Positions 3,351 to 40,447 of a stretch of 64,000 nt of DNA are shown piece by piece. The notes below the pieces were generated by a model. That model did no database searches and was not told where the DNA came from. It saw nothing but the letters and a program-made list of their open reading frames with translations. The translations under genes were made by a program, and so were the position numbers. The stretch's first letter is position 1. Each line of letters starts with the position of its first letter. This stretch comes from Parcubacteria group bacterium GW2011_GWC1_45_13. GTDB lineage: Bacteria > Patescibacteriota > Minisyncoccia > UBA11713 > 2-01-FULL-45-33. The DNA is taken from NCBI GenBank assembly GCA_001001285.1, contig LCKG01000004.1, forward strand, positions 1,957 through 65,956, read 5' to 3'.

Positions 3351-3842
3351 TTAAACAGAGATAGTTTTATATCTTCTAAAGTGAAAGGCAGTGCTTTTTT
3401 CTGACATTGCGCCGATTTTATTCATAACATCCAAAGAGCCGTCCGGATTCCAAAATATTAAGTTAAGCACGATCAGAGCGCTGGCAATCAGCGGAAATTT
3501 TTTTGATTTGAGCGCATCGGATAAGCTAAAAAATTTTTCTTCATAACCCAACAGGGCCTGGTCCCAATCGTCTAAACGAGATTTGCGAATAGAAAAAATT
3601 TGTCTTGTCAGTCCGTATAATTTATGAATCTCGCCAAAGCGAGCTGTTAAATTATTTTTTATACTTTTTAGTTGATTACCTTCGTTTCTATAATTTAAAA
3701 TTGATCTTTCCGAGACCATCCAATCTCGGCCGATGCGTCTACATTTCACTTTGCCAAGACGGCAAAGCTGGCCAACATAATCACTTGTGTAACCAGTTAT
3801 CTTTGCTACTTGTTTTGACGAGATATATTTCTCACCAGACAT
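3351..3842 (-). CDS. membrane-anchored HTH (MerR/excisionase-like HTH_17) protein
   Basis: N-terminal SKQVAKITGYTSDYVGQLCRLGKVKCRRIGRDWMV helix-turn-helix, followed by a hydrophobic segment FPLIASALIVLNLIFW. Confidence 0.45.
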   Translation of the reverse strand: MSGEKYISSKQVAKITGYTSDYVGQLCRLGKVKCRRIGRDWMVSERSILNYRNEGNQLKSIKNNLTARFGEIHKLYGLTRQIFSIRKSRLDDWDQALLGYEEKFFSLSDALKSKKFPLIASALIVLNLIFWNPDGSLDVMNKIGAMSEKSTAFHFRRYKTISV

Positions 3843-3985
3843 GATGTATAATAAAAGTATATCGTTCTACCGAGATAACATAAAATGTTTCTGTGGATAA
3901 ATAAGATAAAAAATTAAAAAGTGAAGGCAAAAACTGAAATTATCTAAAAAATAATTTTAATAAACATTATTAAACATTAATAACA

Positions 3986-4318
3986 ATGAATCCGAGAAAG
4001 CAGAAAAATGATATTAAGGCGTTTATTGATTTTTTTCATGACGCTTGTTTAAAAATAAGGAAAGAAAAACCAAAATTCGCCCGCGGGAAAGACGGTAAGT
4101 TGGCTAAATACGCTTTAGCAAAATTTTCACGCGTACAGCTTGAGATGCTGGCGGTATGGTTTTTGGCCAAAAAACCCAAGCTTGCTCCAAGCATGGGCGC
4201 TATGCTATCTTCAAATGTGCTTTTGGAGCTTGAACGAGAAATAAAGAAGCCAAGTTTCTGGAAGGACTTGGACTCAATTTTAGAATCAAGCAAATATGAT
4301 TTTACAAAAAGAAAATAA
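3986..4318 (+). CDS. hypothetical basic protein
   Basis: 110-aa ORF downstream of an AT-rich promoter region. No recognisable motif. Confidence 0.35.
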   Translation: MNPRKQKNDIKAFIDFFHDACLKIRKEKPKFARGKDGKLAKYALAKFSRVQLEMLAVWFLAKKPKLAPSMGAMLSSNVLLELEREIKKPSFWKDLDSILESSKYDFTKRK

Positions 4319-4829
4319 AATATTACGTAAAAGCGCCGAGGCAGTTGCCAGCCCGAACTCCGCGGACATTAAAACACTTATTAAAAAAATGGCCGAGGCA
4401 ATGTTCGCGGAGCCAGATGGCATTGGCATTGCCGCCCCGCAAATCGGAACGAATCTGCGGATTTTTTTAGTAGCTAAAGAAGCAGCTATAAAAAGCGCCG
4501 ATTGGCTTCACGAAAAAATCGGTGGTAAAAATAAAACAAGAAACGTGGAATATTTGGTTTTTATAAACCCCGTTGTCAAAAACTTTGCGTCTAAAACAAC
4601 AAAAGACATTGAAGGATGTCTTTCTGTGCGCGGATTTTATGGTGAGGTACCGAGGGCGGAGAAAATTACGATTGAGTATTTAGACGAATTTGGAAAAAAA
4701 CGCCAACGGGGGGCATCAGGGCTTTTTGCGAGAGTCATCCAGCACGAGCTGGATCACCTAAGCGGCGTTTTATTTATTGATAAAGCAAAAAAAATTAAAC
4801 ATTTTCCGCAAAATTTAAAAGATGCCTAA
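4296..4829 (+). CDS. def: peptide deformylase
   Basis: Three PDF motifs: GIGIAAPQIG, EGCLS and HELDHL. Confidence 0.9.
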   Translation: MILQKENKILRKSAEAVASPNSADIKTLIKKMAEAMFAEPDGIGIAAPQIGTNLRIFLVAKEAAIKSADWLHEKIGGKNKTRNVEYLVFINPVVKNFASKTTKDIEGCLSVRGFYGEVPRAEKITIEYLDEFGKKRQRGASGLFARVIQHELDHLSGVLFIDKAKKIKHFPQNLKDA

Positions 4830-5553: not shown

Positions 5554-6226
5554 CAGCGGCGTTTTTGCCGAATTTCGATTTTCTTACAGGCAATTTTACC
5601 GCTTTTTGAAACTCAGCCACAAAATTTTGCCTTCCGGTTACTCCCCCGCCAACTATTATTAGTTTAGGGTTGTATTCTTTAAAGCGCCATTTCAAATGTT
5701 GGACTAAAAAAATGGCGAGGGCGTAGTTATTTTTTGAATCGCGTAATTTCTGATATTCTTTTTCCCAGCTCTCTGGGTACTCAAATTTTTTAATTTTTAA
5801 AATTTTGCCGGCTCTGCTGATCGCGCGCCCTATGCCCGTCCCCAGCGTAATAAATAAAACGGCCTGCCCGTCTAAATGCGTTAGCCCTGCCTTGCCAGTA
5901 GGCAGGTTTTGGTGGGCTCTCGCGAAACACCTAGCATCGTTATCAAGCCGCAACTTAGACGTCGGACGTCTAAGTTGCGAAATATCAAAATTTTTAAGAT
6001 ATTTAATGTTGGGGCAAAATAGAATTTTATTTCCTGAAACTGCGCCGGGCACTCCGATGCCGATTTTCTTTGCGCGGTAACTTTTTAAAATATTTTCCAA
6101 AAGCTTTTTAAAAGCGGCTAAATTTTTAGGCGTTTTAAACTCGCGAGCTTTTACGGCCCGCTTGCTGTCCCACAAAACCGCGCGTATTTTTGTGCCTCCA
6201 ATGTCTATACCTAACATAATATCCAT
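5531..6226 (-). CDS. ROK / BadF-type sugar kinase (putative glucokinase)
   Basis: N-terminal MLGIDIGGTKIR actin-fold ATPase phosphate-1 motif and GIGVPG. Carries in-frame palindromic insertions (see findings). Confidence 0.6.
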   Translation of the reverse strand: MDIMLGIDIGGTKIRAVLWDSKRAVKAREFKTPKNLAAFKKLLENILKSYRAKKIGIGVPGAVSGNKILFCPNIKYLKNFDISQLRRPTSKLRLDNDARCFARAHQNLPTGKAGLTHLDGQAVLFITLGTGIGRAISRAGKILKIKKFEYPESWEKEYQKLRDSKNNYALAIFLVQHLKWRFKEYNPKLIIVGGGVTGRQNFVAEFQKAVKLPVRKSKFGKNAAAIGAALL

Positions 6227-6231
6227 CCTTA

Positions 6232-6266
6232 GGCTTGTGTCCTACCGCTAGACGACCCCTCACAAC
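6232..6266 (-). pseudogene. truncated tRNA-like fragment (5' half: acceptor + D-arm), duplicate of adjacent tRNA-Gln
   Basis: tgtgtcctaccgCtagacgaCcccc matches the tRNA-Gln 5' half (tgtgtcctaccgTtagacgaTcccc). No anticodon or T-arm follows. Abuts the ROK start codon. Confidence 0.35.
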
Positions 6267-6271
6267 CATAA

Positions 6272-6342
6272 CTGGGGGACCTGGATTCGAACCAGGATAC
6301 CATCCTCCAAAGGGATGTGTCCTACCGTTAGACGATCCCCCA
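6272..6342 (-). tRNA. tRNA-Gln (anticodon UUG)
   Basis: Cloverleaf folds: acceptor UGGGGGA/UCCCCCA with U1-A72 and G73 (Gln identity), D-stem GUCU/GGAC, anticodon loop CUUUGGA, T-arm CCUGG-UUCGAAU-CCAGG. Confidence 0.8.
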
Positions 6343-8009: not shown

Positions 8010-8541
8010 CGTTCAGCCATTTTGACGGCCCTACAGCGGAAATTATTGAAACGGGCGCGTATGTTGTAAGTATTATAATAAGGACACTGTTAATGACAAG
8101 CCCACCAATGCCAACCGCGAAAAATTTCGGAAAATCTTGGAACAAATTATTTTCGTCGTAATCTTTAAAAACCCAGAGCTTGTTCCATAAATATCCATTT
8201 ATCACTGCAATTAAAAATCCTGGCGCATTGACCCAGCCGACAACGATGCCAGCGGTTACGCCAGTAATATAGCTTGTAAAGTTTAAAACTGTGAAGTCAA
8301 TCGCTGTTGAAAGAAATCCGGCGGCGGCATAGCGCCCAAATTGCGAAAAAAATGGCTTGACGTGTGCTCCAAGAAAATTGCCTAGCCAAACCCCCACCGC
8401 CCAAAGAATTGGAATAAAAACCAAGGCAACGAGATTTTGATATGGGAAAACAATATTTAAAAAACGCAAAATAACCAGCCCGAGCGCTCCCGTCAAAAAC
8501 CCCGCAACAGCACCGATCAAATAATCTTTTTTGGTGGTCAT
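7933..8541 (-). CDS. GtrA-family polysaccharide-synthesis membrane protein
   Basis: About 200 aa with 4 TM helices and the GtrA-like WNKLWVF motif. Confidence 0.65.
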   Translation of the reverse strand: MTTKKDYLIGAVAGFLTGALGLVILRFLNIVFPYQNLVALVFIPILWAVGVWLGNFLGAHVKPFFSQFGRYAAAGFLSTAIDFTVLNFTSYITGVTAGIVVGWVNAPGFLIAVINGYLWNKLWVFKDYDENNLFQDFPKFFAVGIGGLVINSVLIIILTTYAPVSIISAVGPSKWLNVAKFIANIAVLIWNFIGFKFFVFKK

Positions 8542-10952
8542 AATGCTTGAAGCCGTTTTCTGATTTCTTCCTCCACATCCTCGCGCGGACGGCCATATTT
8601 AGCGCGGGAAAGATTCTTTATATATGCGGCCGCGCTCGCCTCGCCAACTTCCTGTGGGATTGTTTTTATGTTAAACGCCTTGGAAGTCTGCCCGTCTATC
8701 AACAATTTAAGATAGGCGTTGAAATTATCAATGTTCAGCAAATCCTGCGCGGAAAACACTGGTTGAAACTGCTTTTCCATATATTCGGCGTCGTCCGAGC
8801 CGATGCGGAAAGATAAAATTGATCCGACATTTCCAAAAACCGCTTTTTTTATCTCTTCTTCCAATTGCCCGATAAATTGGTGCGCGATTATAAGATTGAG
8901 TTTGTATTTTCTCGCCTCTGACAGAATGGTAGCGATTGATTTTGTCGTAACGTTTTGGAATTCGTCTATATAAAGGTAAAAAGCTCCGCGCTCGGTCTGC
9001 GGCCTGTCTACGCGCGATAGCGCCGCCATTAAAATTTTCCCTACCATAATAAGGCCCAAAAGGCTGGAGTTGAGCTCGCCCAATTTACCCTTGGAAAGAT
9101 TTAAAAGCAAAATTTTCTTTCCGTCCATCACGTCGCGAATATTAAAGGCGGAGCGTTCTTGGGCGATAATTGGGCGCATGATTTCATTGGAAAGAAAAGT
9201 GTCAAATTTGGAGACAACATAAGGCACCATATTAGCGAGCGACTGCTCGCCACCGGCCTTTTCAGCGATTTGCCGCCAAAAAGTTTCCACCACAATATTC
9301 TTACTTCGTGAAAGCTTGTAGTCACGAAATGATTTGTCGGTCAAAACTCTCTCAATCTCTAAAAGCGTATTGCCGCTTTCCGGATCTTCCATTACAAGCA
9401 TCGTTGCGTTTCTAAAATACTGTTCAAACATGGGGCCTCCGGCGATGGACATATTAAAAAGTTTGTTAAAAATTTCAAGAAGTTCGTTGACAATAAGGCT
9501 TTTCTGCTCCGGATACCTAGGATCAAACTCCAGCATGTTTAATCCAATGGGGTGTTTGACGTCCCCTGGGTCGAAATAAATAACGTCTTCCGCGCGCTCC
9601 TTGGGTACCAGAGGCAATATAGACTCAATAAGATCTCCGTGCGGATCAATCACGGCAACACCTTCTCCCCATTGGATATCCTGAATAATCATGTTGTGCA
9701 TAAGACTGGATTTTCCAGTGCCGGTCTGCCCGATTATATAAAAATGGCGTTCTCTGTCCTCGCTTTTAATGCGCACAGTGCGCTCGTCGCCCCTGAAAGA
9801 ACTTATACCCAAAGACAAGCCATCCTTCGGCAAATTTACAGGTGGTGCCGCTTCTCTGGCTTTTAGCGTGCGCACCGTCGGTGCCGCCCTTTTGGAATAA
9901 GGCAGATGATAAATACTCACGATTTCTTCCACATTCAAATTTAAAACGCGGTTTTCGTCAAATAACCTAAATGAAAAATACTCAACCAATTTTCGCAGCG
10001 CCTTCCCGCCGAGCTCTTTTATTTTAAATTCACTGCCTTCCGGATTTGTAAATTGAAAAAAACTTGCTCCCAAATCTTTAAGCAAAGCGTCGGCTCGCTC
10101 CGTGGAAGCGGCGGATGTAAGAATGCGTACGTTGCATTCAAACATGGTTTTGCTTGCTTTCTCGTCCAAAAGCTTGGCAAACTCCTCATCATAAACTGAT
10201 TTTTGGTCTTTGGACTTTTTCTTGCCGAAAAAAATATCCCAAAACACGCTCCAAAACCCAGTTTCACCCAAAACTTCTTTACGGGAGACCCCCTCTTTTA
10301 ATTTTTGCGCAGCGAGATGTGCCCGTTTTTTCGTGTTCTCGCCGCCAAATCTTAAAACGATCTGTAAAGCCGCCCCCTCGCCATATTCTTTGATTTTAGA
10401 AAATGCGGAAGTTATTGTTTCCAAAGGGTCGGCCGCAAGCTTTTGGTAAGTTTTTATCGGTAAAATTTCGGATCCGGAGCGCAAAACCAAAGCGCCGGCA
10501 GTCGCACCCTCAACATTAAAAATATTGTAGTCCGGCGTCCTTTCTATTTTGGCTTCGGGAAAAGCGCCATGAAGCTGATTTTGAAGCAGAGATTCGTAAA
10601 TTTTTGGGAACGCAATGTAGAAAAAAATCTCATTCCCGCGGTTGTGCAATGCGATTTCCAAAGCGAAAGAAGGATTGCCCCATAATTTTTCTTTCAACCC
10701 CTTTCTTCGAAAAGTCGCCAGGCCGCTCAAAAATTGTTCCATCTGCATAATGAAATTTTTCAGAGCTTGGAATTCGTCGCCTTGCTGGGCCTTAGCGATT
10801 TCCGGCGAACTGATTAAATAAAGCGCAAGGCTTAGGCCAGAGCTTACGTCGCGCAGTTTTTTATTTTTTTGGTAAGAAGAAAAAAGTAAAAACCAAAAAA
10901 TCAAGGCGAGGACTATCGGTAAAACGATATAGAAAAAAGTGAAAGAATTCAT
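8538..10952 (-). CDS. membrane-anchored VirD4/TraG/TraD-like (AAA_10 / DUF87-type) coupling ATPase
   Basis: N-terminal TM helix; Walker A HFYIIGQTGTGKSS; Walker B YLYIDEFQN; C-terminal ARKYKLNLIIAHQ motif typical of the TraG/TraD C-terminal region. Confidence 0.55.
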   Translation of the reverse strand: MNSFTFFYIVLPIVLALIFWFLLFSSYQKNKKLRDVSSGLSLALYLISSPEIAKAQQGDEFQALKNFIMQMEQFLSGLATFRRKGLKEKLWGNPSFALEIALHNRGNEIFFYIAFPKIYESLLQNQLHGAFPEAKIERTPDYNIFNVEGATAGALVLRSGSEILPIKTYQKLAADPLETITSAFSKIKEYGEGAALQIVLRFGGENTKKRAHLAAQKLKEGVSRKEVLGETGFWSVFWDIFFGKKKSKDQKSVYDEEFAKLLDEKASKTMFECNVRILTSAASTERADALLKDLGASFFQFTNPEGSEFKIKELGGKALRKLVEYFSFRLFDENRVLNLNVEEIVSIYHLPYSKRAAPTVRTLKAREAAPPVNLPKDGLSLGISSFRGDERTVRIKSEDRERHFYIIGQTGTGKSSLMHNMIIQDIQWGEGVAVIDPHGDLIESILPLVPKERAEDVIYFDPGDVKHPIGLNMLEFDPRYPEQKSLIVNELLEIFNKLFNMSIAGGPMFEQYFRNATMLVMEDPESGNTLLEIERVLTDKSFRDYKLSRSKNIVVETFWRQIAEKAGGEQSLANMVPYVVSKFDTFLSNEIMRPIIAQERSAFNIRDVMDGKKILLLNLSKGKLGELNSSLLGLIMVGKILMAALSRVDRPQTERGAFYLYIDEFQNVTTKSIATILSEARKYKLNLIIAHQFIGQLEEEIKKAVFGNVGSILSFRIGSDDAEYMEKQFQPVFSAQDLLNIDNFNAYLKLLIDGQTSKAFNIKTIPQEVGEASAAAYIKNLSRAKYGRPREDVEEEIRKRLQAL

Positions 10953-11344
10953 GCTTTAAGTTTTCTAGCCGCAAGCAGTTTTTCGTAATATTTATCGGCC
11001 AGTGCATCGTGAAATTCATCCAATAGATGCGGATTTTTTAAGTGATTCGCGGCTTTAACGGCAATAGCCAGTCCTTGGGCAAACGCCAGACCTATCAACC
11101 TTTCTACAATTTGCTGGTGCTCTTTTTCTTTTAGAGCGTAAGCCGCCTTTTGGGCGGTGTCATCCGAAACAGCAAGGAGTCCGCCGATAGGCATAGACGT
11201 TTTTCCAAGAGAAACGTCTATTATGACTTCCCGCACCATTTCTTTTTCTGGCTTTTCCGCGCCACCAGTGGCCAGCTCTTTCTTTTTGGCCTCCAGCCGC
11301 TCTTCCAGCCATTTTATTTCTTCATGAACAGCTTCCTGAAGCAT
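10949..11344 (-). CDS. hypothetical coiled-coil protein (translationally coupled to the ATPase)
   Basis: 131-aa ORF; its stop overlaps the start of the 804-aa ATPase. Confidence 0.4.
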   Translation of the reverse strand: MLQEAVHEEIKWLEERLEAKKKELATGGAEKPEKEMVREVIIDVSLGKTSMPIGGLLAVSDDTAQKAAYALKEKEHQQIVERLIGLAFAQGLAIAVKAANHLKNPHLLDEFHDALADKYYEKLLAARKLKA

Positions 11345-11374
11345 GTATTTATAATAACATGCTATAATTAAATT

Positions 11375-12910
11375 ATGAAAAATTCTGCTTACTGGCTGAT
11401 TGTAATTATTTTAATTGCCGTTTTTTTGAGATTTTGGGATTTAAAAAATACTCCGCCCGGGTTTTGGTTGGATGAGGCTATGAACGGAACCAATGCTATC
11501 CAGGCTATAGAGATTAGTGGCTGGAAGGTGTTTTACCAGGAAAATTTCGGGAGAGAGGGATTATTTATAAATATCCAAGCGTTATTTGTAAAAACTTTTG
11601 GCCACGAGCCATGGGTTTTGCGCTTGCCTTCGGTGATTTTCGGCTTATTAACGGTCTTGGGACTTTATTTTTTGACAAAAGAACTGTTTTCTGGGCGTGT
11701 TTCGCTTTTCGCGTCTTTTTTTCTGGCAACTTCGTTCTGGCACATTAATTTTTCACGAATCGGGTTCCGCGCGATAATGGCTCCGTTTTTTTTGGTTTGG
11801 GCGTTTTATTTTTTATTTTTAGGAATGCGGAAGCAAAAAGAATGGATTTTCACCTCAGCCGGATTTACTTTCGGCCTCGGCTTTCACACTTATATTGCCT
11901 ATCGCGCCGCGCCCATAATCGCGTTTTTGCCTTTTTGGAGTTTTTATAAATCATGGCGAGAGGACACCGGACGTCCACTTGGACGTCCGGTGTCCAAGCA
12001 CTGCGCTCCATGCTTAATTGGCCTTTTTATTTTCATGGCGTTTTTAGCGGCATTGCCATTGCTCTGGTATTACGCCCAAAACCCTGCTGATTTCCTAGGC
12101 AGGACCTCGGCAATATCAGTATTTAAATCTTCAAATCCGCTTGGCCAATTTTCAGAAAATTTGGTAAAAACTTTGGGAATGTTTAATTTCGCCGGAGATT
12201 TCAATTGGCGGCACAATTTAGCAGGTTCGCCCCAGCTTTGGTGGCCCGTGGGAATTTTATTTTTGATAGGGATTTTTGGAGCATTGCGCTCGAGTGTTTT
12301 CCCGCGCAATGCTTATAATTTTATTTTGCTGTGGTTCATTGTCATGATTCTTCCCGTCGCGTTTTCAAATGAATCTCTGCCTCACGCGCTTCGCGCCATT
12401 GTTTTAATACCGCCAGCTATGATTTTCGCCGCTTTGGGGCTGGACTGGCTTTGGAGAAATGTCAGGCCGCGGCTTAGGATTTTTATTTATATTTTTTTAG
12501 TCACCGCCGCGATTCAGGCATACAGCCAGTATTTTCTCCGCTGGGCGCCAAACTTTAATGTTTATCAAGCCTTCCATACTGACATTACGGAAAAGGCGCG
12601 TTGGCTCAACAAACAACCAAATGATATTAAAAAATACGTCATAACTGACGCGGTTGATCGGGTAGACACAACCGGAACGCCCATGTCATTTCAGCCAATA
12701 ATTTTTATTACTGATACTGCCACGCCGGCAAAACAGACAAGGAAAAACATCTATTATGCTTCTCTGCAAAATATTTCTTCAGCAAATTGTTCCCAAAAAT
12801 GCCTTTTCGTGCCCGTTGAATACCAACCTTCCATTTTTAAAATTATCAAACAAAAAATCCCGGGTTTGCGTCTAGACGCCTCTTCGGGATTTGTGGTTTT
12901 GAAAAAATGA
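11375..12910 (+). CDS. GT39-family (ArnT/PMT-like) membrane glycosyltransferase
   Basis: 511 aa with more than 10 TM helices and dolichyl-phosphate-mannose / ArnT-like N-terminal architecture. TATAAT at 11362 just upstream. Contains an in-frame palindromic element encoding EDTGRPLGRPVSK. Confidence 0.65.
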   Translation: MKNSAYWLIVIILIAVFLRFWDLKNTPPGFWLDEAMNGTNAIQAIEISGWKVFYQENFGREGLFINIQALFVKTFGHEPWVLRLPSVIFGLLTVLGLYFLTKELFSGRVSLFASFFLATSFWHINFSRIGFRAIMAPFFLVWAFYFLFLGMRKQKEWIFTSAGFTFGLGFHTYIAYRAAPIIAFLPFWSFYKSWREDTGRPLGRPVSKHCAPCLIGLFIFMAFLAALPLLWYYAQNPADFLGRTSAISVFKSSNPLGQFSENLVKTLGMFNFAGDFNWRHNLAGSPQLWWPVGILFLIGIFGALRSSVFPRNAYNFILLWFIVMILPVAFSNESLPHALRAIVLIPPAMIFAALGLDWLWRNVRPRLRIFIYIFLVTAAIQAYSQYFLRWAPNFNVYQAFHTDITEKARWLNKQPNDIKKYVITDAVDRVDTTGTPMSFQPIIFITDTATPAKQTRKNIYYASLQNISSANCSQKCLFVPVEYQPSIFKIIKQKIPGLRLDASSGFVVLKK

Positions 12911-36390: not shown

Positions 36391-36654
36391 TTGACGACTT
36401 TTTATGTGTTTAGTAAACTTATAGTGATGGATTTAATACAAAAGAAATATCTCACCATTCATCAAGCCGCCAAATTAATAGGCGTTACCGCGCTTACGCT
36501 TAGAAATTGGGACAATCTGCGCAAATTTCAAGCAGCCAGGCACCCCATAAACAATTATCGGGTCTATACTTTAGAACAAATTGAATCATTGCTTAAAAAA
36601 TTAGGACTGCCTAAGCCTGCCAAGAAATTGGTTATAAAGATTTTAGAGGATTAG
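36391..36654 (+). CDS. MerR-family / excisionase-like HTH DNA-binding protein
   Basis: LTIHQAAKLIGVTALTLRNWDNLRKF HTH. Located immediately 5' of the IR-bounded cassette. Confidence 0.55.
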   Translation: MTTFYVFSKLIVMDLIQKKYLTIHQAAKLIGVTALTLRNWDNLRKFQAARHPINNYRVYTLEQIESLLKKLGLPKPAKKLVIKILED

Positions 36655-36701
36655 TAAGGTTTATTAATATTTTGGACATTATACGACAAAATCAGAACCT
36701 T

Positions 36702-36959
36702 TTTTGAGCAAAATCCCAACTGATTTACCCCTTCATTCACCCCTTCATCGGCTCTGCCTCGGAATGAAGGGGTAGCTCTGTTGATTTGCCTTATGTTTAC
36801 TGGACTTTCTAACCTTCGCTCTTCAAAATCCCAAACCCGACTTCACTCCGCTACGCCCCATTCCACGCTTGTGCTGTTTTCCACGAAAGTCCTCCTGTGG
36901 AGGACTGGCTCGCCGCCCAGCTGGGCGGCTCGCAGGTCGCCGGAATTCCTCCCCTCAAA
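36702..36959 (+). repeat. IR-L: about 260-nt structured repeat, inverted partner of IR-R (39880-40139)
   Basis: By-eye alignment to the reverse complement of 39880-40139 gives about 80% identity. Contains hairpins ccccttcattc/gaatgaagggg, gtcctcc-tgt-ggaggac and gccgccc-agct-gggcggc. Confidence 0.7.
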
Positions 36960-37018
36960 CCCCTCCTTTCGGCTGGTCCTTAGATGAGGTAGATAAGCAG
37001 TTATCCACAGGTGAGTAC

Positions 37019-37047
37019 TTTACAAGAATGTGATATTGGTATAGGAT
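37019..37047 (+). promoter_or_regulatory. putative promoter for the cassette (TTTACA-17-TAGGAT)
   Basis: -35-like TTTACA, 17-nt spacer, TAGGAT, about 40 nt upstream of the GHKL ATPase ATG. Weak. Confidence 0.25.
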
Positions 37048-37087
37048 CATACTATCACTTAATAAACTATCAATTAGTATACAAAAT

Positions 37088-38740
37088 ATGGAAAAAAACC
37101 AAAAAACTGAGACCATAGATATCACACCGGATAAGAGTATTTATCACAAAATTGGGGAAGCTAATTATTCGATCTCTGATGCACTTGCAGAATTAGTAGA
37201 CAACTCAATTGATGCTGCGAATGAAGATGGCGTCGAGATATTTATTGTCTTAGATAAGAAGGGAGAAAAAATCATTGTCGAAGACAACGGGCAAGGGATG
37301 AGCAAAGAGATAGCTTCGAAGAGTCTAGTACTTGCCTATTCTAAAAAACATGATGCACTAGGCGAGTTTGGCTTGGGTTTAAAATCAGCTTGCACAAGTC
37401 TCGGAACAATTTTTGTTATAACAAGTACTCCAAAAGGCTCTGAAGAAAAATATACTCTCGAATATAATAAGGAGCAATTTTTACAATCAAGTGATTGGCA
37501 TAAGTATCCTCTTACAATCATAAAGGCTCCGAAGAATGAACACGGAACAAAAATAGAAATTAGTAGTTTGAAGATCAAATTATATGATGCACTTGTTACG
37601 CGTCTCAAGGAGGACTTAGCAAAAAGATACGGCCCATATATTGAGCATAACAATGTTGTCATTAAAGTCGGCTTGAGGAGAGAGACGGCTAAACCGTGCG
37701 TACCTAGCGAAAATAAACTAGTTCCTGACTCGAAGAAAGATTTCTCATATATGCTTTCAAAAGGAAGCACTATTACGGGTTGGTATGGTCTTTTAGAGGT
37801 TGGATCACAAAAACAAAGCGGTTTCAACCTATTCCGAAGAGGACGATTAATAAGAGCGTCTGAGAAACTTGGTTATAACTATCACCCACACCTTATGAGT
37901 GTTGCGGGGGAAATAAATTTGGATTCCGTACCAGTAACACACAATAAACGAGAATTCATTATTGAATCTAGCGAATTTAAAGAATTTATTGAAAAATTTT
38001 GGGGCGATCAAACTGAAAAATATTTGGGGTACAAAGTTAAGGGTAAAATCGATGAGATAACAAAAACCGCCAGAGATCGATCAAGCCAAGAAAAAGCGGA
38101 TAGTATGCCAGTTGAAAGAAAAGAAACAATAAAAAATAACTTATTGAATGCCCTTAACCGCCTCGATGAATTCAAAGAATTAGCTTACCCAGATCTATAT
38201 CAACCTAAAAAGAGGTCTGCAACTGGGAAGGAAGATTTTAAGGAAACCAGAGAAACTGATTTGCGAGTAGCTAAAGAAGAGGAAGTGCCGCTTACAAAGG
38301 AAGAAAGGGATCAAAGAACACCCAAAAAGACACAGCCCAAAACAGCCAAGTTTATAATGGTTGGGGGGAAAAAATTCAAATTTGATTTCTTTCTAAGAAA
38401 TCTGGGGAACGATACTATCGATAAGGAAACTATTATTAATCAAGAAAATGTTATCGAAATATATATTAACACGGGATTCAAGGGTTATGGTTTAACAAAG
38501 GATACTGATTTTTATTCTACCTTCCATATAGCGGAGGCTATTGCCGAACTTTATGTTAAAGAAGCTAATCAAAAGGTAGAAAGGATTTTTGAGCTAAGAA
38601 ATAGTCTCATATACGAAGTTGCATCTTTAATATACGAGGAAGAGGAATATAAAAGGCTTGAAAAAACTGAAAAAGAGTTGGCTGCAGTTACTGACAAAAA
38701 AAGAGAGCTTGAAGAAAAGAGAGCAAGAACGAGTTTATGA
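37088..38740 (+). CDS. MORC/MutL-type GHKL ATPase (HATPase_c_3) with C-terminal coiled coil
   Basis: Bergerat-fold motifs: N-box ALAELVDNSIDA, G1 box VEDNGQGM, G2 box GEFGLGLKSA; K/E-rich C-terminal coiled coil. Codon usage is AT-richer than the flanking genes. Confidence 0.75.
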   Translation: MEKNQKTETIDITPDKSIYHKIGEANYSISDALAELVDNSIDAANEDGVEIFIVLDKKGEKIIVEDNGQGMSKEIASKSLVLAYSKKHDALGEFGLGLKSACTSLGTIFVITSTPKGSEEKYTLEYNKEQFLQSSDWHKYPLTIIKAPKNEHGTKIEISSLKIKLYDALVTRLKEDLAKRYGPYIEHNNVVIKVGLRRETAKPCVPSENKLVPDSKKDFSYMLSKGSTITGWYGLLEVGSQKQSGFNLFRRGRLIRASEKLGYNYHPHLMSVAGEINLDSVPVTHNKREFIIESSEFKEFIEKFWGDQTEKYLGYKVKGKIDEITKTARDRSSQEKADSMPVERKETIKNNLLNALNRLDEFKELAYPDLYQPKKRSATGKEDFKETRETDLRVAKEEEVPLTKEERDQRTPKKTQPKTAKFIMVGGKKFKFDFFLRNLGNDTIDKETIINQENVIEIYINTGFKGYGLTKDTDFYSTFHIAEAIAELYVKEANQKVERIFELRNSLIYEVASLIYEEEEYKRLEKTEKELAAVTDKKRELEEKRARTSL

Positions 38741-38810
38741 GACCCAAAGATATAGGAAAGACAAACATAAAGGTCGATACGATAATAATAAATTATAATT
38801 TAATACCACA

Positions 38811-39233
38811 ATGAAGAAAAAAGTTTTTGTTAGCTTCGATTATGATAATGATAAGCACTACAAATATCTTCTTGAGGCATGGGACGCGAATCCTCAATTT
38901 AATTTTGTCTTCAATGACGCGACACCAGAGGAAATCGATAGCTACAATATCGGTAGAATCAAAGCGGCCTTAACCTTAAAAGTTAAGGAGGCAGACTACA
39001 CACTAGTTCTTGTAGGTAAGGAAGCGAATAAGACCCATAGACACAGTCGACTTATTGGCTTTAAAAACTGGATCAACTTTGAGGTTGCTAAGAGTAAAGA
39101 GCTTGGAAACAAAATCGTTGCCGTCAAATTAGATAGAGAGAATGAATCTCCAGAGGAGCTGCTCGACTCAGGTGCTTCTTGGGCTATGAGTTTTTCTCAA
39201 GCCGCAATTATCAAGGCATTGAATGATGCCTAA
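38811..39233 (+). CDS. TIR-like domain protein (DUF1863 / ThsB-like)
   Basis: N-terminal KKVFVSFDYDNDKHYKYLLEAW matches the beta-A strand and start of TIR-like MTH538/DUF1863 domains. 140 aa. Confidence 0.55.
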   Translation: MKKKVFVSFDYDNDKHYKYLLEAWDANPQFNFVFNDATPEEIDSYNIGRIKAALTLKVKEADYTLVLVGKEANKTHRHSRLIGFKNWINFEVAKSKELGNKIVAVKLDRENESPEELLDSGASWAMSFSQAAIIKALNDA

Positions 39234-39243
39234 GTGAATATCT

Positions 39244-39849
39244 ATGAGCATAAGCGACGATAAAAAACTAGAGACGCTTAACGATCACTACAAAGATACA
39301 TTCGCTCAAATACGTGATTATATCTCACTGCGTGATAAGTTGTTGATCTGGATTCTCTTGGTAGCTGCAGTGATGTTATTCGAAGTTTTTTCTCCGAGTG
39401 AGGCCGGCTTAGCTATCGCACAATTTGCGTCCGAAAAGGTCGGCCTTAATGGAGCCTTAATTAACACCTCATTCATCGGAAGCGTCATTTGGTTTTTGAT
39501 GCTCGTTTTGACAATGAAATATTTTCAAACAGTGGGGTTAATTGAGAAACATTATGATTATATTGAAAAAGTAGAGGACGCTATAAGAAAAAACTACGAT
39601 GGAGCTACGGGAATCTTTTCTAGAGAGGGACGACACTATCTCGAAAACTATCCTCTCTTTTCTGATTGGTCGTGGCTCTTATATACGATAATTTTCCCGA
39701 TACTATTAGTCGCCGTTTTGTTATATAAAATATATAATGAGGTTTTTATTTCAGGTTGCAGCGTGATTTTCTATATAAATCTTTTAATATTTATTTGCAT
39801 AGTTACGTCAACGATTCTTTATTTAAGGATGTTGCATTTTAAAAAATAG
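39244..39849 (+). CDS. four-TM membrane protein (candidate effector of the cassette)
   Basis: 201 aa; hydrophobic helices at about 33-52, 85-105, 141-161 and 172-194. Tightly linked (10-nt gap) to the TIR-like gene. Confidence 0.5.
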   Translation: MSISDDKKLETLNDHYKDTFAQIRDYISLRDKLLIWILLVAAVMLFEVFSPSEAGLAIAQFASEKVGLNGALINTSFIGSVIWFLMLVLTMKYFQTVGLIEKHYDYIEKVEDAIRKNYDGATGIFSREGRHYLENYPLFSDWSWLLYTIIFPILLVAVLLYKIYNEVFISGCSVIFYINLLIFICIVTSTILYLRMLHFKK

Positions 39850-39879
39850 TTCTCGGCCATGCGACCTTGAGCTATGAAT

Positions 39880-40139
39880 TTTGAGGGGAGGAATTTCGGC
39901 GACCAAGCGAGCCGACCAGCAGGGCGGCGAGCCAATCCGCCGGAGGCGGATATTGTGGGAAACAGCACAAGCGTGGAATGGGGGCGTAGCGGAGTGAAGT
40001 CGGGTTTGGAATTTGAGGGAGGCGAAGTCAGAATAGCGAGTAATGACAGGCGGATTTGAGAACGGAGGGTAGTCATTCCGAGGTAGGGCGAATGACTACC
40101 TGAATGACTAGGTAAATCAGTCAGGATTTTGCTCAAAAT
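39880..40139 (-). repeat. IR-R: inverted copy of the IR-L structured element
   Basis: Reverse complement aligns with 36702-36959, including the conserved core caaacccgacttcactccgctacgcccc.attccacgcttgtgctgttt. Hairpins retained through compensatory changes (ggtagtcattc/gaatgactacc; atccgcc-tcc-ggcggat). Confidence 0.7.
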
Positions 40140-40178
40140 GAGTCCGAACAGTATCATAAAGACACCACCAAATTTGAT

Positions 40179-40226
40179 TTGCATCAGAATTGACCGAGCC
40201 CGCGCCAAAGGCGCGGGCGAGGTCAA
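40179..40226 (+). terminator. putative intrinsic terminator after the cassette
   Basis: GC-rich hairpin gcccgcgcc-aaa-ggcgcgggc, then T-rich tctttctt. Confidence 0.3.
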
Positions 40227-40248
40227 TCTTTCTTCAAATTCGGAATTG

Positions 40249-40319
40249 TGGACCCGAGGGGAATCGAACCCCTATTTTCCGGATGCAAACCGGATGCTCT
40301 ACCACTAAGCTACGGGCCC
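40249..40319 (-). tRNA. tRNA-Ala (anticodon UGC)
   Basis: Acceptor GGGCCCG/CGGGUCC with the G3:U70 Ala identity pair and A73; D-arm GCUU-AGUGGUA-GAGC; anticodon loop UUUGCAU; T-arm GGGGUUCGAUUCCCC. Confidence 0.85.
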
Positions 40320-40447
40320 CGGGCACGATTTATTTCTTGCCCATGATCCTTTCCTTTCATTGTCACCTCTTTGGGATTCACCATCGTTCTTTTTTCACGG
40401 CATTTTACACAGTAGGCAATTATTTTTTCGTCTTTATCATTTGCCAT
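40310..40447 (-). CDS. small zinc-ribbon-like protein, possibly truncated (CxxC...VTMK family)
   Basis: 45-aa ORF MANDKDEKIIAYCVKCREKRTMVNPKEVTMKGKDHGQEINRARGP; its last 4 codons read into the tRNA-Ala 5' end. Only one CxxC pair, although a second would be expected. Confidence 0.3.
   Translation of the reverse strand: MANDKDEKIIAYCVKCREKRTMVNPKEVTMKGKDHGQEINRARGP

Follow-up and report, generated by a model that had tools for sequence, protein, structure and literature searches.

In the groundwater bacterium Parcubacteria group bacterium GW2011_GWC1_45_13, a member of the Candidate Phyla Radiation (CPR; Patescibacteria) with a tiny genome, three co-directional genes for a GHKL ATPase, a TIR protein and a four-helix transmembrane (4TM) protein lie between long inverted repeats and next to a tRNA-Ala gene. 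They were studied in a 64,000-nucleotide stretch of DNA, hereafter the window (assembly GCA_001001285.1, contig LCKG01000004.1, positions 1,957 to 65,956 of the forward strand). Coordinates refer to the window, except those that follow the number of a fetched locus (L001 and so on). We conclude, with a probability of roughly 60%, that the three genes form a horizontally acquired composite defense cassette, in which two separable modules are held between the arms of a recurrent inverted-repeat element. The TIR and 4TM genes would make up one module, a signaling system of the Thoeris type. The other would be the gene for the GHKL ATPase, a protein of the MORC family; with a putative promoter of its own, it is better seen as a mobile defense-associated gene than as an obligate partner of the TIR+4TM pair.

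A sequence-only reading of the window had instead proposed one novel system of three genes. All the open reading frames (ORFs), the tRNA-Ala gene and the inverted repeats that it described were found where it had placed them. The defense-island character of the region and its acquisition near a tRNA gene, within long inverted repeats, are both supported by the data below, but the unity of the three-gene set is not.

The TIR and membrane protein pair

The TIR gene (38811-39233, plus strand) encodes 140 amino acids, and the 4TM gene (39244-39849, plus strand) encodes 201. The TIR-like character suspected for the 140-residue protein was confirmed by profile searches, in which it matched Pfam ThsB_TIR (PF08937) at 3.2e-11, above the gathering score, and PADLOC ThsB models down to 3e-15; PDC-M50B was also matched. 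A candidate catalytic glutamate is in place as well. Glu91 of the NWINFE motif aligns with the glutamate of RWVRYE in ThsB of B. cereus MSX-D12, and is conserved across all aligned TIRs of the 4TM class and of Type VII. We take the glutamate at this position to be the catalytic residue of the TIR active site, and the protein is thus a predicted signal-producing enzyme.

Close relatives are found in Table S1 of Yirmiya et al. (2025; bioRxiv 10.64898/2025.12.03.692087), where TIR cluster 2727267812 includes proteins that have the putative effector label '4TM' and no entry in the column 'selected for experimental verification'. Identity between the window TIR and five of these '4TM'-labelled TIRs is 57-68%, and they have its NWINFE and SWAMSF motifs. 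With verified Type VII (SLATT) TIRs of that cluster, identity drops to 39-40%, and three SLATT-associated TIRs make canonical cyclic ADP-ribose according to the same preprint.

The four hydrophobic helices ascribed to the 201-residue protein are readily seen, and its AlphaFold2 model is all-helical (predicted local distance difference test score, pLDDT, 86; predicted template modeling score, pTM, 0.81). Pfam, PADLOC and NCBIfam searches assigned no family, a sequence search of the PDB gave no match, and Foldseek found nothing in the PDB below E = 0.1. An identity as an 8xMP protein (PF24838), a family on which a literature search brought up nothing relevant, was rejected for want of a Pfam match. 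The protein nevertheless belongs to a large family, for which a word-indexed search gave 55 clusters, and an exhaustive profile search 926 representatives. Of these 926, the 150 listed with the best scores are almost all about 200 residues long. The family alignment revealed conserved motifs (DHYKDT at the N-terminus, RYFQ, ERQY..H.LE and REG..Y..YPLF) and the invariant residues Y93, Q95, Y106, E111, R127, E128 and Y132. A SLOG, Macro, SLATT or similar signal-binding domain was not found in the protein, only these conserved polar motifs in a loop and at the N-terminus. The invariant residues, together with DHYKDT, may form the site at which a signal is bound.

The two genes belong together elsewhere. 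In all five independent TM-family loci that were fetched (L001-L005, including Thermincola potens), the membrane protein gene starts 0-90 nt after an orthologous TIR gene, and the encoded TIRs are about 55-60% identical, as judged by eye in the alignment. None of the five loci has a GHKL gene near the pair, which thus occurs without GHKL in Thermincola and in other phyla. As judged from sequence, the pair is a conserved two-gene unit, and the TIR identity, the shared motifs and the 4TM partner together make it a new member of the predicted '4TM' Thoeris configuration. Two points weigh against this assignment. The '4TM' class is itself a predicted configuration, and Table S1 holds TIRs and not effector sequences, so that the effectors of the preprint are not directly comparable with the 4TM protein of the window, which is only presumably their ortholog.

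In its ThsB-type TIR of cluster 2727267812, in the small multi-pass membrane protein encoded right behind the TIR in a two-gene operon, and in its predicted abortive-infection logic, the window pair resembles '4TM' and Type VII Thoeris, the latter a TIR with a SLATT protein that uses canonical cyclic ADP-ribose (bioRxiv 10.64898/2025.12.03.692087). It differs in an effector without a SLATT, Macro, SLOG or DUF2270 domain and without a relative of solved structure, in its CPR host, and in the MORC ATPase that accompanies it inside an inverted-repeat cassette. By analogy, the ThsB-like TIR would use Glu91 to convert NAD+ to an ADP-ribose-derived signal on phage infection. The 4TM protein, as predicted effector, would then bind the signal and oligomerize or open, which would lead to membrane collapse and abortive infection.

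The MORC-family ATPase and its changing neighbors

The GHKL gene (37088-38740, plus strand) encodes 550 amino acids, arranged as a GHKL and S5 module, a helical/beta C-terminal region and a terminal coiled coil. Several lines of evidence agree on the MORC-type GHKL assignment made earlier. The protein matches Pfam HATPase_c_3 at 1.6e-20, with a weak, sub-threshold match to Morc6_S5. The N-box, G1 and G2 motifs quoted in the sequence-only reading are present, and the family alignment shows family-wide invariance of the ATP-binding residues E35, D38 and N39, D66 and G70, and G92, G95 and G97. A profile of the family found eukaryotic MORC3, MORC4 and MORC2 as best matches in the PDB at 3e-17, in two stretches. 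The AlphaFold2 model (pLDDT 80) was matched by Foldseek to the ATPase modules of MORC2, MORC3, SMCHD1 and Hsp90 at about 1e-13, and its long C-terminal helix (residues 498-549) bears out the proposed coiled-coil tail. The MORC-specific S5 motif GhXhhpXXRhl defined by Iyer, Abhiman and Aravind (2008; PMC2292703) is represented by GFNLFRRGRLI at residues 245-255, in which G245, R250 and R253 are invariant. On these sequence features the protein is a true MORC-family ATPase, and by the S5 motif it is a MORC proper, in contrast to the paraMORCs. MzaB was considered as an identity and rejected, since only the N-terminal 90 residues match (PADLOC 5.6e-7; NCBIfam 36 bits against a cutoff of 850); genes for MzaA, C, D or E are not among the ORFs of the window.

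Species-representative genomes supplied 46 GHKL loci, and metagenomes a further three. These loci are patchily spread over CPR phyla, DPANN archaea, Acidobacteriota, Dormibacterota, Actinomycetes and others. An orthologous TIR+4TM pair was present in none of these approximately 49 loci, and the orthologous trio was seen only in the window's own genome lineage. Together with the five TM-family loci, all without GHKL, this absence of conserved co-occurrence means that the three genes are not one conserved system, contrary to what had been proposed.

What follows the GHKL gene is variable. A tight, co-directional downstream partner was present in about 33 of 45 loci, with a spacing mostly between -34 and +45 nt. 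The partners include cyclases of the cyclic oligonucleotide-based antiphage signaling system (CBASS; L010 and L012, PADLOC 1e-126 and 1e-112), Shedu SduA (L041), Abi_2 (L017), RelA_SpoT (L054), Hypoth_Ymh (L013), PDC-M36A (L011) and assorted TM proteins. Proteases are also represented, by Trypsin_2 proteins (L027 by Pfam, L030 by the same BLAST cluster) and by SDH/ClpP proteases (L046, L016, L031 and, as an in-frame fusion, L009); the partner in L026, from a singleton cluster, is trypsin-like from sequence motifs only. Non-orthologous TIR+TM pairs lie downstream of GHKL in three further loci, as a ThsB-TIR with an 8xMP membrane protein in L029 and L043, and as the TM and TIR pair PDC-M50A+B in L038. 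No helicase was found among the immediate downstream partners catalogued in the approximately 45 loci. In this respect, which concerns gene context and not family membership, the family departs from typical prokaryotic MORCs, about 70% of which occur in a superfamily II helicase or restriction-modification (R-M) context (Iyer, Abhiman and Aravind, 2008; PMC2292703).

Partner choice is not predictable from the GHKL sequence, as orthologs 75-94% identical to that of the window carry differing partners. Nucleotide homology of the orthologs to the window starts about 50-90 nt before the start codon and ends at the stop codon. The conserved stretch (in the window from about 36997) contains a promoter-like site, TTTACA-17-TAGGAT (37019-37047, plus strand), by consensus match only. 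These homology limits and the swapped partners identify the GHKL gene with its promoter as a discrete module, and the swapped partners make the window trio one of many combinations. The GHKL protein would then most likely act alone or as a generic ATP-driven DNA-clamp sensor or regulator, encoded directly upstream of whichever defense module fills the next slot, across CPR bacteria and DPANN archaea.

Side observations concern individual members of the family. L009 (6001-8724) encodes a 907-residue in-frame fusion of a GHKL protein, 93% identical to that of the window over the GHKL part, with an SDH/ClpP-type serine protease (Pfam 8.5e-16); this cassette is AT-rich in a GC-richer locus and lies between near-perfect arms of about 280 nt. 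In L043 (7647-9387), the ThsB-like TIR ORF is broken by an IS3-type insertion with helix-turn-helix (HTH) and rve ORFs, followed by an 8xMP-like TM segment, and the module looks decayed. A subgroup of longer GHKL proteins (670-724 amino acids; P0053-P0062; L019, L022, L026, L032, L037, L051 and L054) has the HTH domains Sigma70_r4, Bac_DnaA_C and GerE. For several of these no partner is evident downstream, a hint that the family may have a DNA-sequence-specific or regulatory function.

The best-surviving alternative is a modular MORC system, with GHKL as the conserved sensor or switch and an interchangeable second part, here the TIR+4TM pair as effector arm. In this view, the MORC clamp would dimerize on foreign DNA in an ATP-dependent manner, and the module downstream would thereby be activated or its expression licensed. 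Several observations speak for it and weigh against an independent GHKL gene: the co-directional defense gene that almost always follows within tens of bases, the in-frame fusion in L009, and the inverted repeats that hold exactly GHKL and its partner in the window, L009, L043, L046 and L011. TIR+TM pairs moreover account for four of the approximately 45 partners, and longer family members have HTH/sigma-70 region 4 domains. Precedents are also available, since VcSduA, a Shedu protein with GHKL and DUF4263 (PMC12137116), and paraMORC3-nuclease and paraMORC4-TIR (PMC2292703) likewise couple a GHKL+S5 ATPase to a defense effector, TIR included, with a patchy, laterally mobile distribution as for the window GHKL. 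Tight spacing, fusion, repeat enclosure and known fusions thus favor a functional link between GHKL and its neighbor.

On the other hand, the partners are autonomous and widespread without GHKL (TIR+4TM as well as the PADLOC-defined CBASS cyclases, SduA and PDC-M50), and where the precedents have one fused effector, the window family has a diversity of partners that are sufficient by themselves. Partners have been exchanged recently among GHKL proteins of 75-94% identity, which show no sign of co-adaptation to them, and homology stops at the stop codon. Tight co-directional spacing is ordinary in compact genomes, and a promoter-like site, a weak consensus match, precedes the TIR gene. We therefore consider a modular MORC system a serious but rather unlikely explanation and place an independent or generic GHKL gene ahead of it, if not by much. 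A softer version of the three-gene proposal survives in view of the three GHKL loci with non-orthologous TIR+TM pairs: there may be a looser functional link between the MORC ATPase and whichever defense module comes next.

The inverted-repeat arms, their cargo and the recombinase

The long diverged inverted repeats described earlier around the cassette were recovered as five collinear segments; pairwise alignment gave a mean column identity of 83%, and by profile the repeat spans 263 nt. Conservation reaches about 36673 on the left and about 40173 on the right, for arms of about 290 nt. The left arm (36673-36961, plus strand; GC 0.54) has its inner end toward the cargo and is of the CCCCTTC dyad type, and the right arm (39877-40173, minus strand) is of the GGTAGTC type, so that the pair is heterotypic. 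A 29-mer from the arm has no site in the window other than in these two arms, with 0 expected by chance. The same arms frame other cassettes. In L009, which has the closest GHKL relative and comes from a much GC-richer genome, the arms are about 280 nt long and homologous to those of the window, with 100%-identical blocks of 222 and 46 nt, and 95% identity over 283 nt with gaps. Other long inverted repeats surround the GHKL cassettes of L043 and L046.

Scanning metagenomes with the invariant core of the arm yielded 61 further loci, none of which encodes GHKL, TIR or 4TM genes. In profile searches the arms form convergent pairs, always with the AAATTCCTCCCC end inward, around 2-4.6 kb of DNA, and contigs often break within them. 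Many arms are composite, with an outer partial module that abuts a full arm, a pattern that repeated nesting or recombination of cassettes or sites might produce. The outer part spans model positions of about 12-161 and is usually of the GGTAGTC type, and the full inner arm is of the CCCCTTC type (L055 at 4425-4785 and 8259-8619, L060, L067, L072, L076, L082, L090, L096, L108, L111 and L115).

The cargo was surveyed with 76 ORFs inside 19 arm pairs, which matched 44 Pfam families; the 25 most frequent were listed. It consists mostly of defense genes, with eight DNA methylases, Mrr, MvaI/BcnI and PD-(D/E)xK nucleases, GmrSD_N and Z1. Three other HATPase_c_3 proteins, SocA/Panacea antitoxins, GIY-YIG proteins and ten small XRE-type HTH proteins were also found, and no transposase or integrase was among the 25 most frequent families listed. 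In seven loci (L059, L060, L073, L076, L098, L100 and L109), the first ORF inside an arm encodes an XRE/HTH_3 protein of 70-73 residues that resembles the controller (C) proteins of R-M systems or CapH. Inside the arms of the window, such a controller-like ORF is missing.

A large serine recombinase of one family is encoded outside the arms in at least 13 of the 61 arm loci, and also in L009. It lies immediately against an arm in L068, L078, L108 and L057. Among named families it is most similar to CcrB (6.8e-36) and XisF, but it misses both family cutoffs, that of CcrB by far. Transfer RNA genes are frequent neighbors of the arms as well. Like the window, L071 and L076 have tRNA-Ala(tgc) next to an arm, and the arm-tRNA junction of L076 is 94% identical to that of the window. 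The recombinase gene is itself bracketed by inverted repeats of 73-168 nt, often 100% identical and built from its own 3' coding end, which suggests a self-inverting recombinase segment (L068 1966-2077 / 3511-3622; L094 3809-3939 / 6165-6295; L069 1416-1559 / 3889-4023; L067 2949-3115 / 11299-11455; L009 9031-9123 / 10678-10770; L043 9617-9689 / 11141-11213). The 3' end of the gene points toward the arm in L068, L078, L108 and L057, and toward the tRNA gene in L009, L043 and L069.

The arms have an internal order of their own. A 6-9-nt motif occurs three times in the left arm, twice in direct and once in inverted orientation, alongside the invariant blocks ACTTCACTCCGCTA and AAATTCCTCCCC. The dyad ACCCCTTCA-N17-TGAAGGGGT combines strong conservation with covariation (95% of cells paired, double-sided changes in seven of nine pairs; score 0.21 versus 0.07 in shuffles, with 0 of 500 shuffles reaching the observed value), and slid controls collapse. 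A third, direct copy just upstream of the dyad covaries too: it matches in 52 of 56 arms (shuffle mean 22, maximum 31), and the same 6-mer is present in all three copies in 50 of the 56. There are two main dyad types, CCCCTTC and GGTAGTC, and pairs are often heterotypic, with C left and G right in the window and the reverse in L109 and L100. Covariation among two direct copies and one inverted copy is not predicted by a simple RNA hairpin, but fits repeated sites of a dimeric DNA-binding protein. From their sequence, the motifs look like candidate binding sites for a recombinase, for example the neighboring large serine recombinase.

The motifs could also work as RNA or single-stranded DNA structures, a point that weighs against protein-binding sites. 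The arms would then be structured non-coding RNAs, or cis-regulatory, terminator or insulator elements that control the enclosed genes. The strong covariation of the hairpin is in line with this, as are a second hairpin with compensatory changes in the left arm of the window and in L097, and the three covarying copies, which could allow alternative pairings. Single-sequence folding of the arms is modestly better than that of shuffles (z = -2.4 to -3.3), which is not decisive. However, Rfam found only tRNA(s) in the whole window at gathering thresholds, and nothing in the arms even at E <= 5. RNAalifold on both strands of 56 arms gave one robust hairpin and no extended RNA architecture, and a third proposed helix was rejected, with only 69% of its cells paired. 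G-U evidence for one strand is weak, and the GHKL promoter lies inside the inner boundary of the left arm. Further points against such a role are that the arms are always convergent pairs around swappable cargo, that contigs break in them, that some are composite or nested, and that a large serine recombinase abuts them. Arms acting as RNA or regulatory elements rather than as recombination sites are therefore improbable.

Taken further, the arms and the recombinase might constitute an undescribed, integron-like platform that captures, swaps or inverts small defense modules at tRNA-proximal sites in CPR genomes. The triple motif would be the recombinase-binding site, and the MORC gene a recurrent passenger that serves as generic upstream sensor or regulator. 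We put this forward tentatively, as a proposal that is less likely true than false.

Origin of the window copy and relation to known elements

The foreign, AT-richer composition attributed to the cassette was upheld by comparison with the rest of the window. Its GC content of 0.362 is the minimum among all segments of equal size (mean 0.432 +/- 0.023), and its tetranucleotide distance of 0.404 (maximum of 0.309 in other segments) is the most deviant. The arms are GC-rich (0.53-0.54), unlike the AT-rich cargo. This composition points to horizontal acquisition of the cassette. No relatives of the GHKL or TM proteins were found among viral contigs, and there is thus no sign of a phage-borne module.

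That the window copy has itself been mobile is suggested by the arm family, the foreign composition and L009, and several observations count against it. There is no recombinase gene in the 64-kb window. No target-site duplication or flanking direct repeat was seen by eye at the ends of its arms. Among 23 public contigs with an identical GHKL and 24 with an identical flanking protein, there was no empty site or inverted variant, and the arrangement was the same in all displayed places. The window arms are also the most diverged pair seen, at 77-83% identity versus 90-100% elsewhere. The lack of a recombinase within 64 kb and this divergence indicate that the window copy is probably fixed and no longer mobile.

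On the left, just outside the arm, lies a small HTH gene of the MerR/Xis type (36391-36654, plus strand; Pfam MerR 1.2e-6, MerR_1 2.3e-6; PADLOC mad1 4e-10). It has no homolog beside arms or GHKL genes in the other fetched loci and was rejected as part of the element; it is a neighbor of doubtful membership. On the right, a 63-nt GC-rich palindrome (40177-40239) separates the arm from tRNA-Ala(tgc) (40248-40319, minus strand), which abuts the element. The palindrome is 91% identical to L059 2233-2290, near recombinase gene fragments. It may act as terminator of the tRNA gene, or be left over from the element or from a lost recombinase segment. Outside the element, a DUF5679 zinc-ribbon ORF of 45 residues (40310-40447, minus strand; Pfam 1.2e-6) overlaps the tRNA gene. 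It is not truncated by the tRNA, as had been suggested, since a 62-nt internal deletion shifts its frame into the tRNA. In otherwise identical sequence from another sample (L121, 11835-12014), the intact DUF5679 gene encodes 59 residues with both CxxC pairs and stops 10 nt short of this tRNA-Ala gene. The deletion is a population polymorphism. A few kilobases upstream of the cassette (about 29.6-32.4 kb of the window; L120 434-1060 and 3489-3917), an IS200/IS605-type Y1 transposase gene and a PemK-family toxin gene sit amid housekeeping genes.

Two further explanations were considered in the light of these data. The sequence-only reading had envisaged an obligate three-component novel system, in which GHKL is the sensor, TIR the signal generator and the TM protein the effector. 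The three genes are indeed adjacent, co-directional and enclosed together by the arms, and analogous TIR+TM pairs, though not orthologous ones, occur at three other GHKL loci. With the orthologous set confined to this genome lineage and both sub-units recurring independently many times, such a system is very unlikely. A housekeeping MutL/MORC paralog with unrelated neighbors and no defense role, conceivable insofar as GHKL ATPases include repair and chaperone proteins, can be dismissed almost entirely in view of the foreign composition, the patchy spread over CPR, DPANN, Acidobacteriota and Actinomycetes, the consistently defense-related neighbors and the location inside a mobile cassette. The data are better explained by the composite cassette, with both modules as cargo between convergent arms whose covarying motifs resemble recombinase-binding sites, and which elsewhere frame R-M and other defense genes near a Ccr/XisF-like large serine recombinase and tRNA genes.

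Parallels to the arm family exist among known elements. Integrons consist of IntI, attI and attC-bounded cassettes, and some chromosomal ones carry defense genes. As in integrons, the arm-family cassettes are small, promoter-poor or self-contained, enriched in defense genes, and bounded by covarying imperfect palindromes beside a site-specific recombinase. However, the arm-family repeats are inverted pairs for each cassette and its recombinase is of the serine type, whereas integrons have one attC per cassette, head-to-tail; neither a tyrosine integrase nor an attC/attI-type arrangement was found among the arm-family cargo or flanks examined.

Staphylococcal cassette chromosome (SCC) elements with Ccr recombinases, such as SCCmec with defense cargo (PMC11470126), resemble the arm family in a large serine recombinase, which in the arm family is encoded at part of the loci and has CcrB as best named match, in variable cargo rich in defense genes and in a fixed kind of chromosomal insertion site. 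They differ in their short direct repeats, instead of convergent inverted repeats of about 290 nt, and in their insertion at rlmH instead of near tRNA genes. The arm-family cassettes, moreover, are only 2-4.6 kb long, their recombinase lies outside the repeat-bounded segment in an invertible segment of its own, and the window copy is without one. Serine recombinases have also been described as markers of defense loci (PMC13552941). These too are associated with diverse anti-phage systems, and mobilization or inversion has been proposed as the reason, but that work deals with small Hin/Gin-like recombinases in Bacillota and Bacteroidota, without long inverted-repeat arms.

In literature that we covered incompletely, so that absence is not proof, we found no published account of a MORC subfamily with a variable downstream defense slot, nor of cassettes with convergent arms of about 290 nt beside a large serine recombinase. 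The parts are of known kinds; the repeat and recombinase packaging and the pattern of a MORC gene with a variable partner appear to be undescribed.

Little is known of immunity or of the exchange of defense genes in CPR bacteria and DPANN archaea, whose genomes are tiny. The locus offers a concrete CPR example of a predicted Thoeris type, whose effector family is large (926 representative clusters) and without a known relative in fold. It is the packaging element and the MORC pattern, rather than the proposed three-gene system, that hold the main interest. The MORC family underlies eukaryotic MORC silencing and plant immunity proteins, and a MORC ATPase upstream of more than 12 different defense modules hints at a generic role in prokaryotic immunity. 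The packaging of small modules by inverted repeats and a large serine recombinase could explain the mobility of defense genes in CPR and DPANN lineages, and the arms could serve as bait for finding new defense systems.

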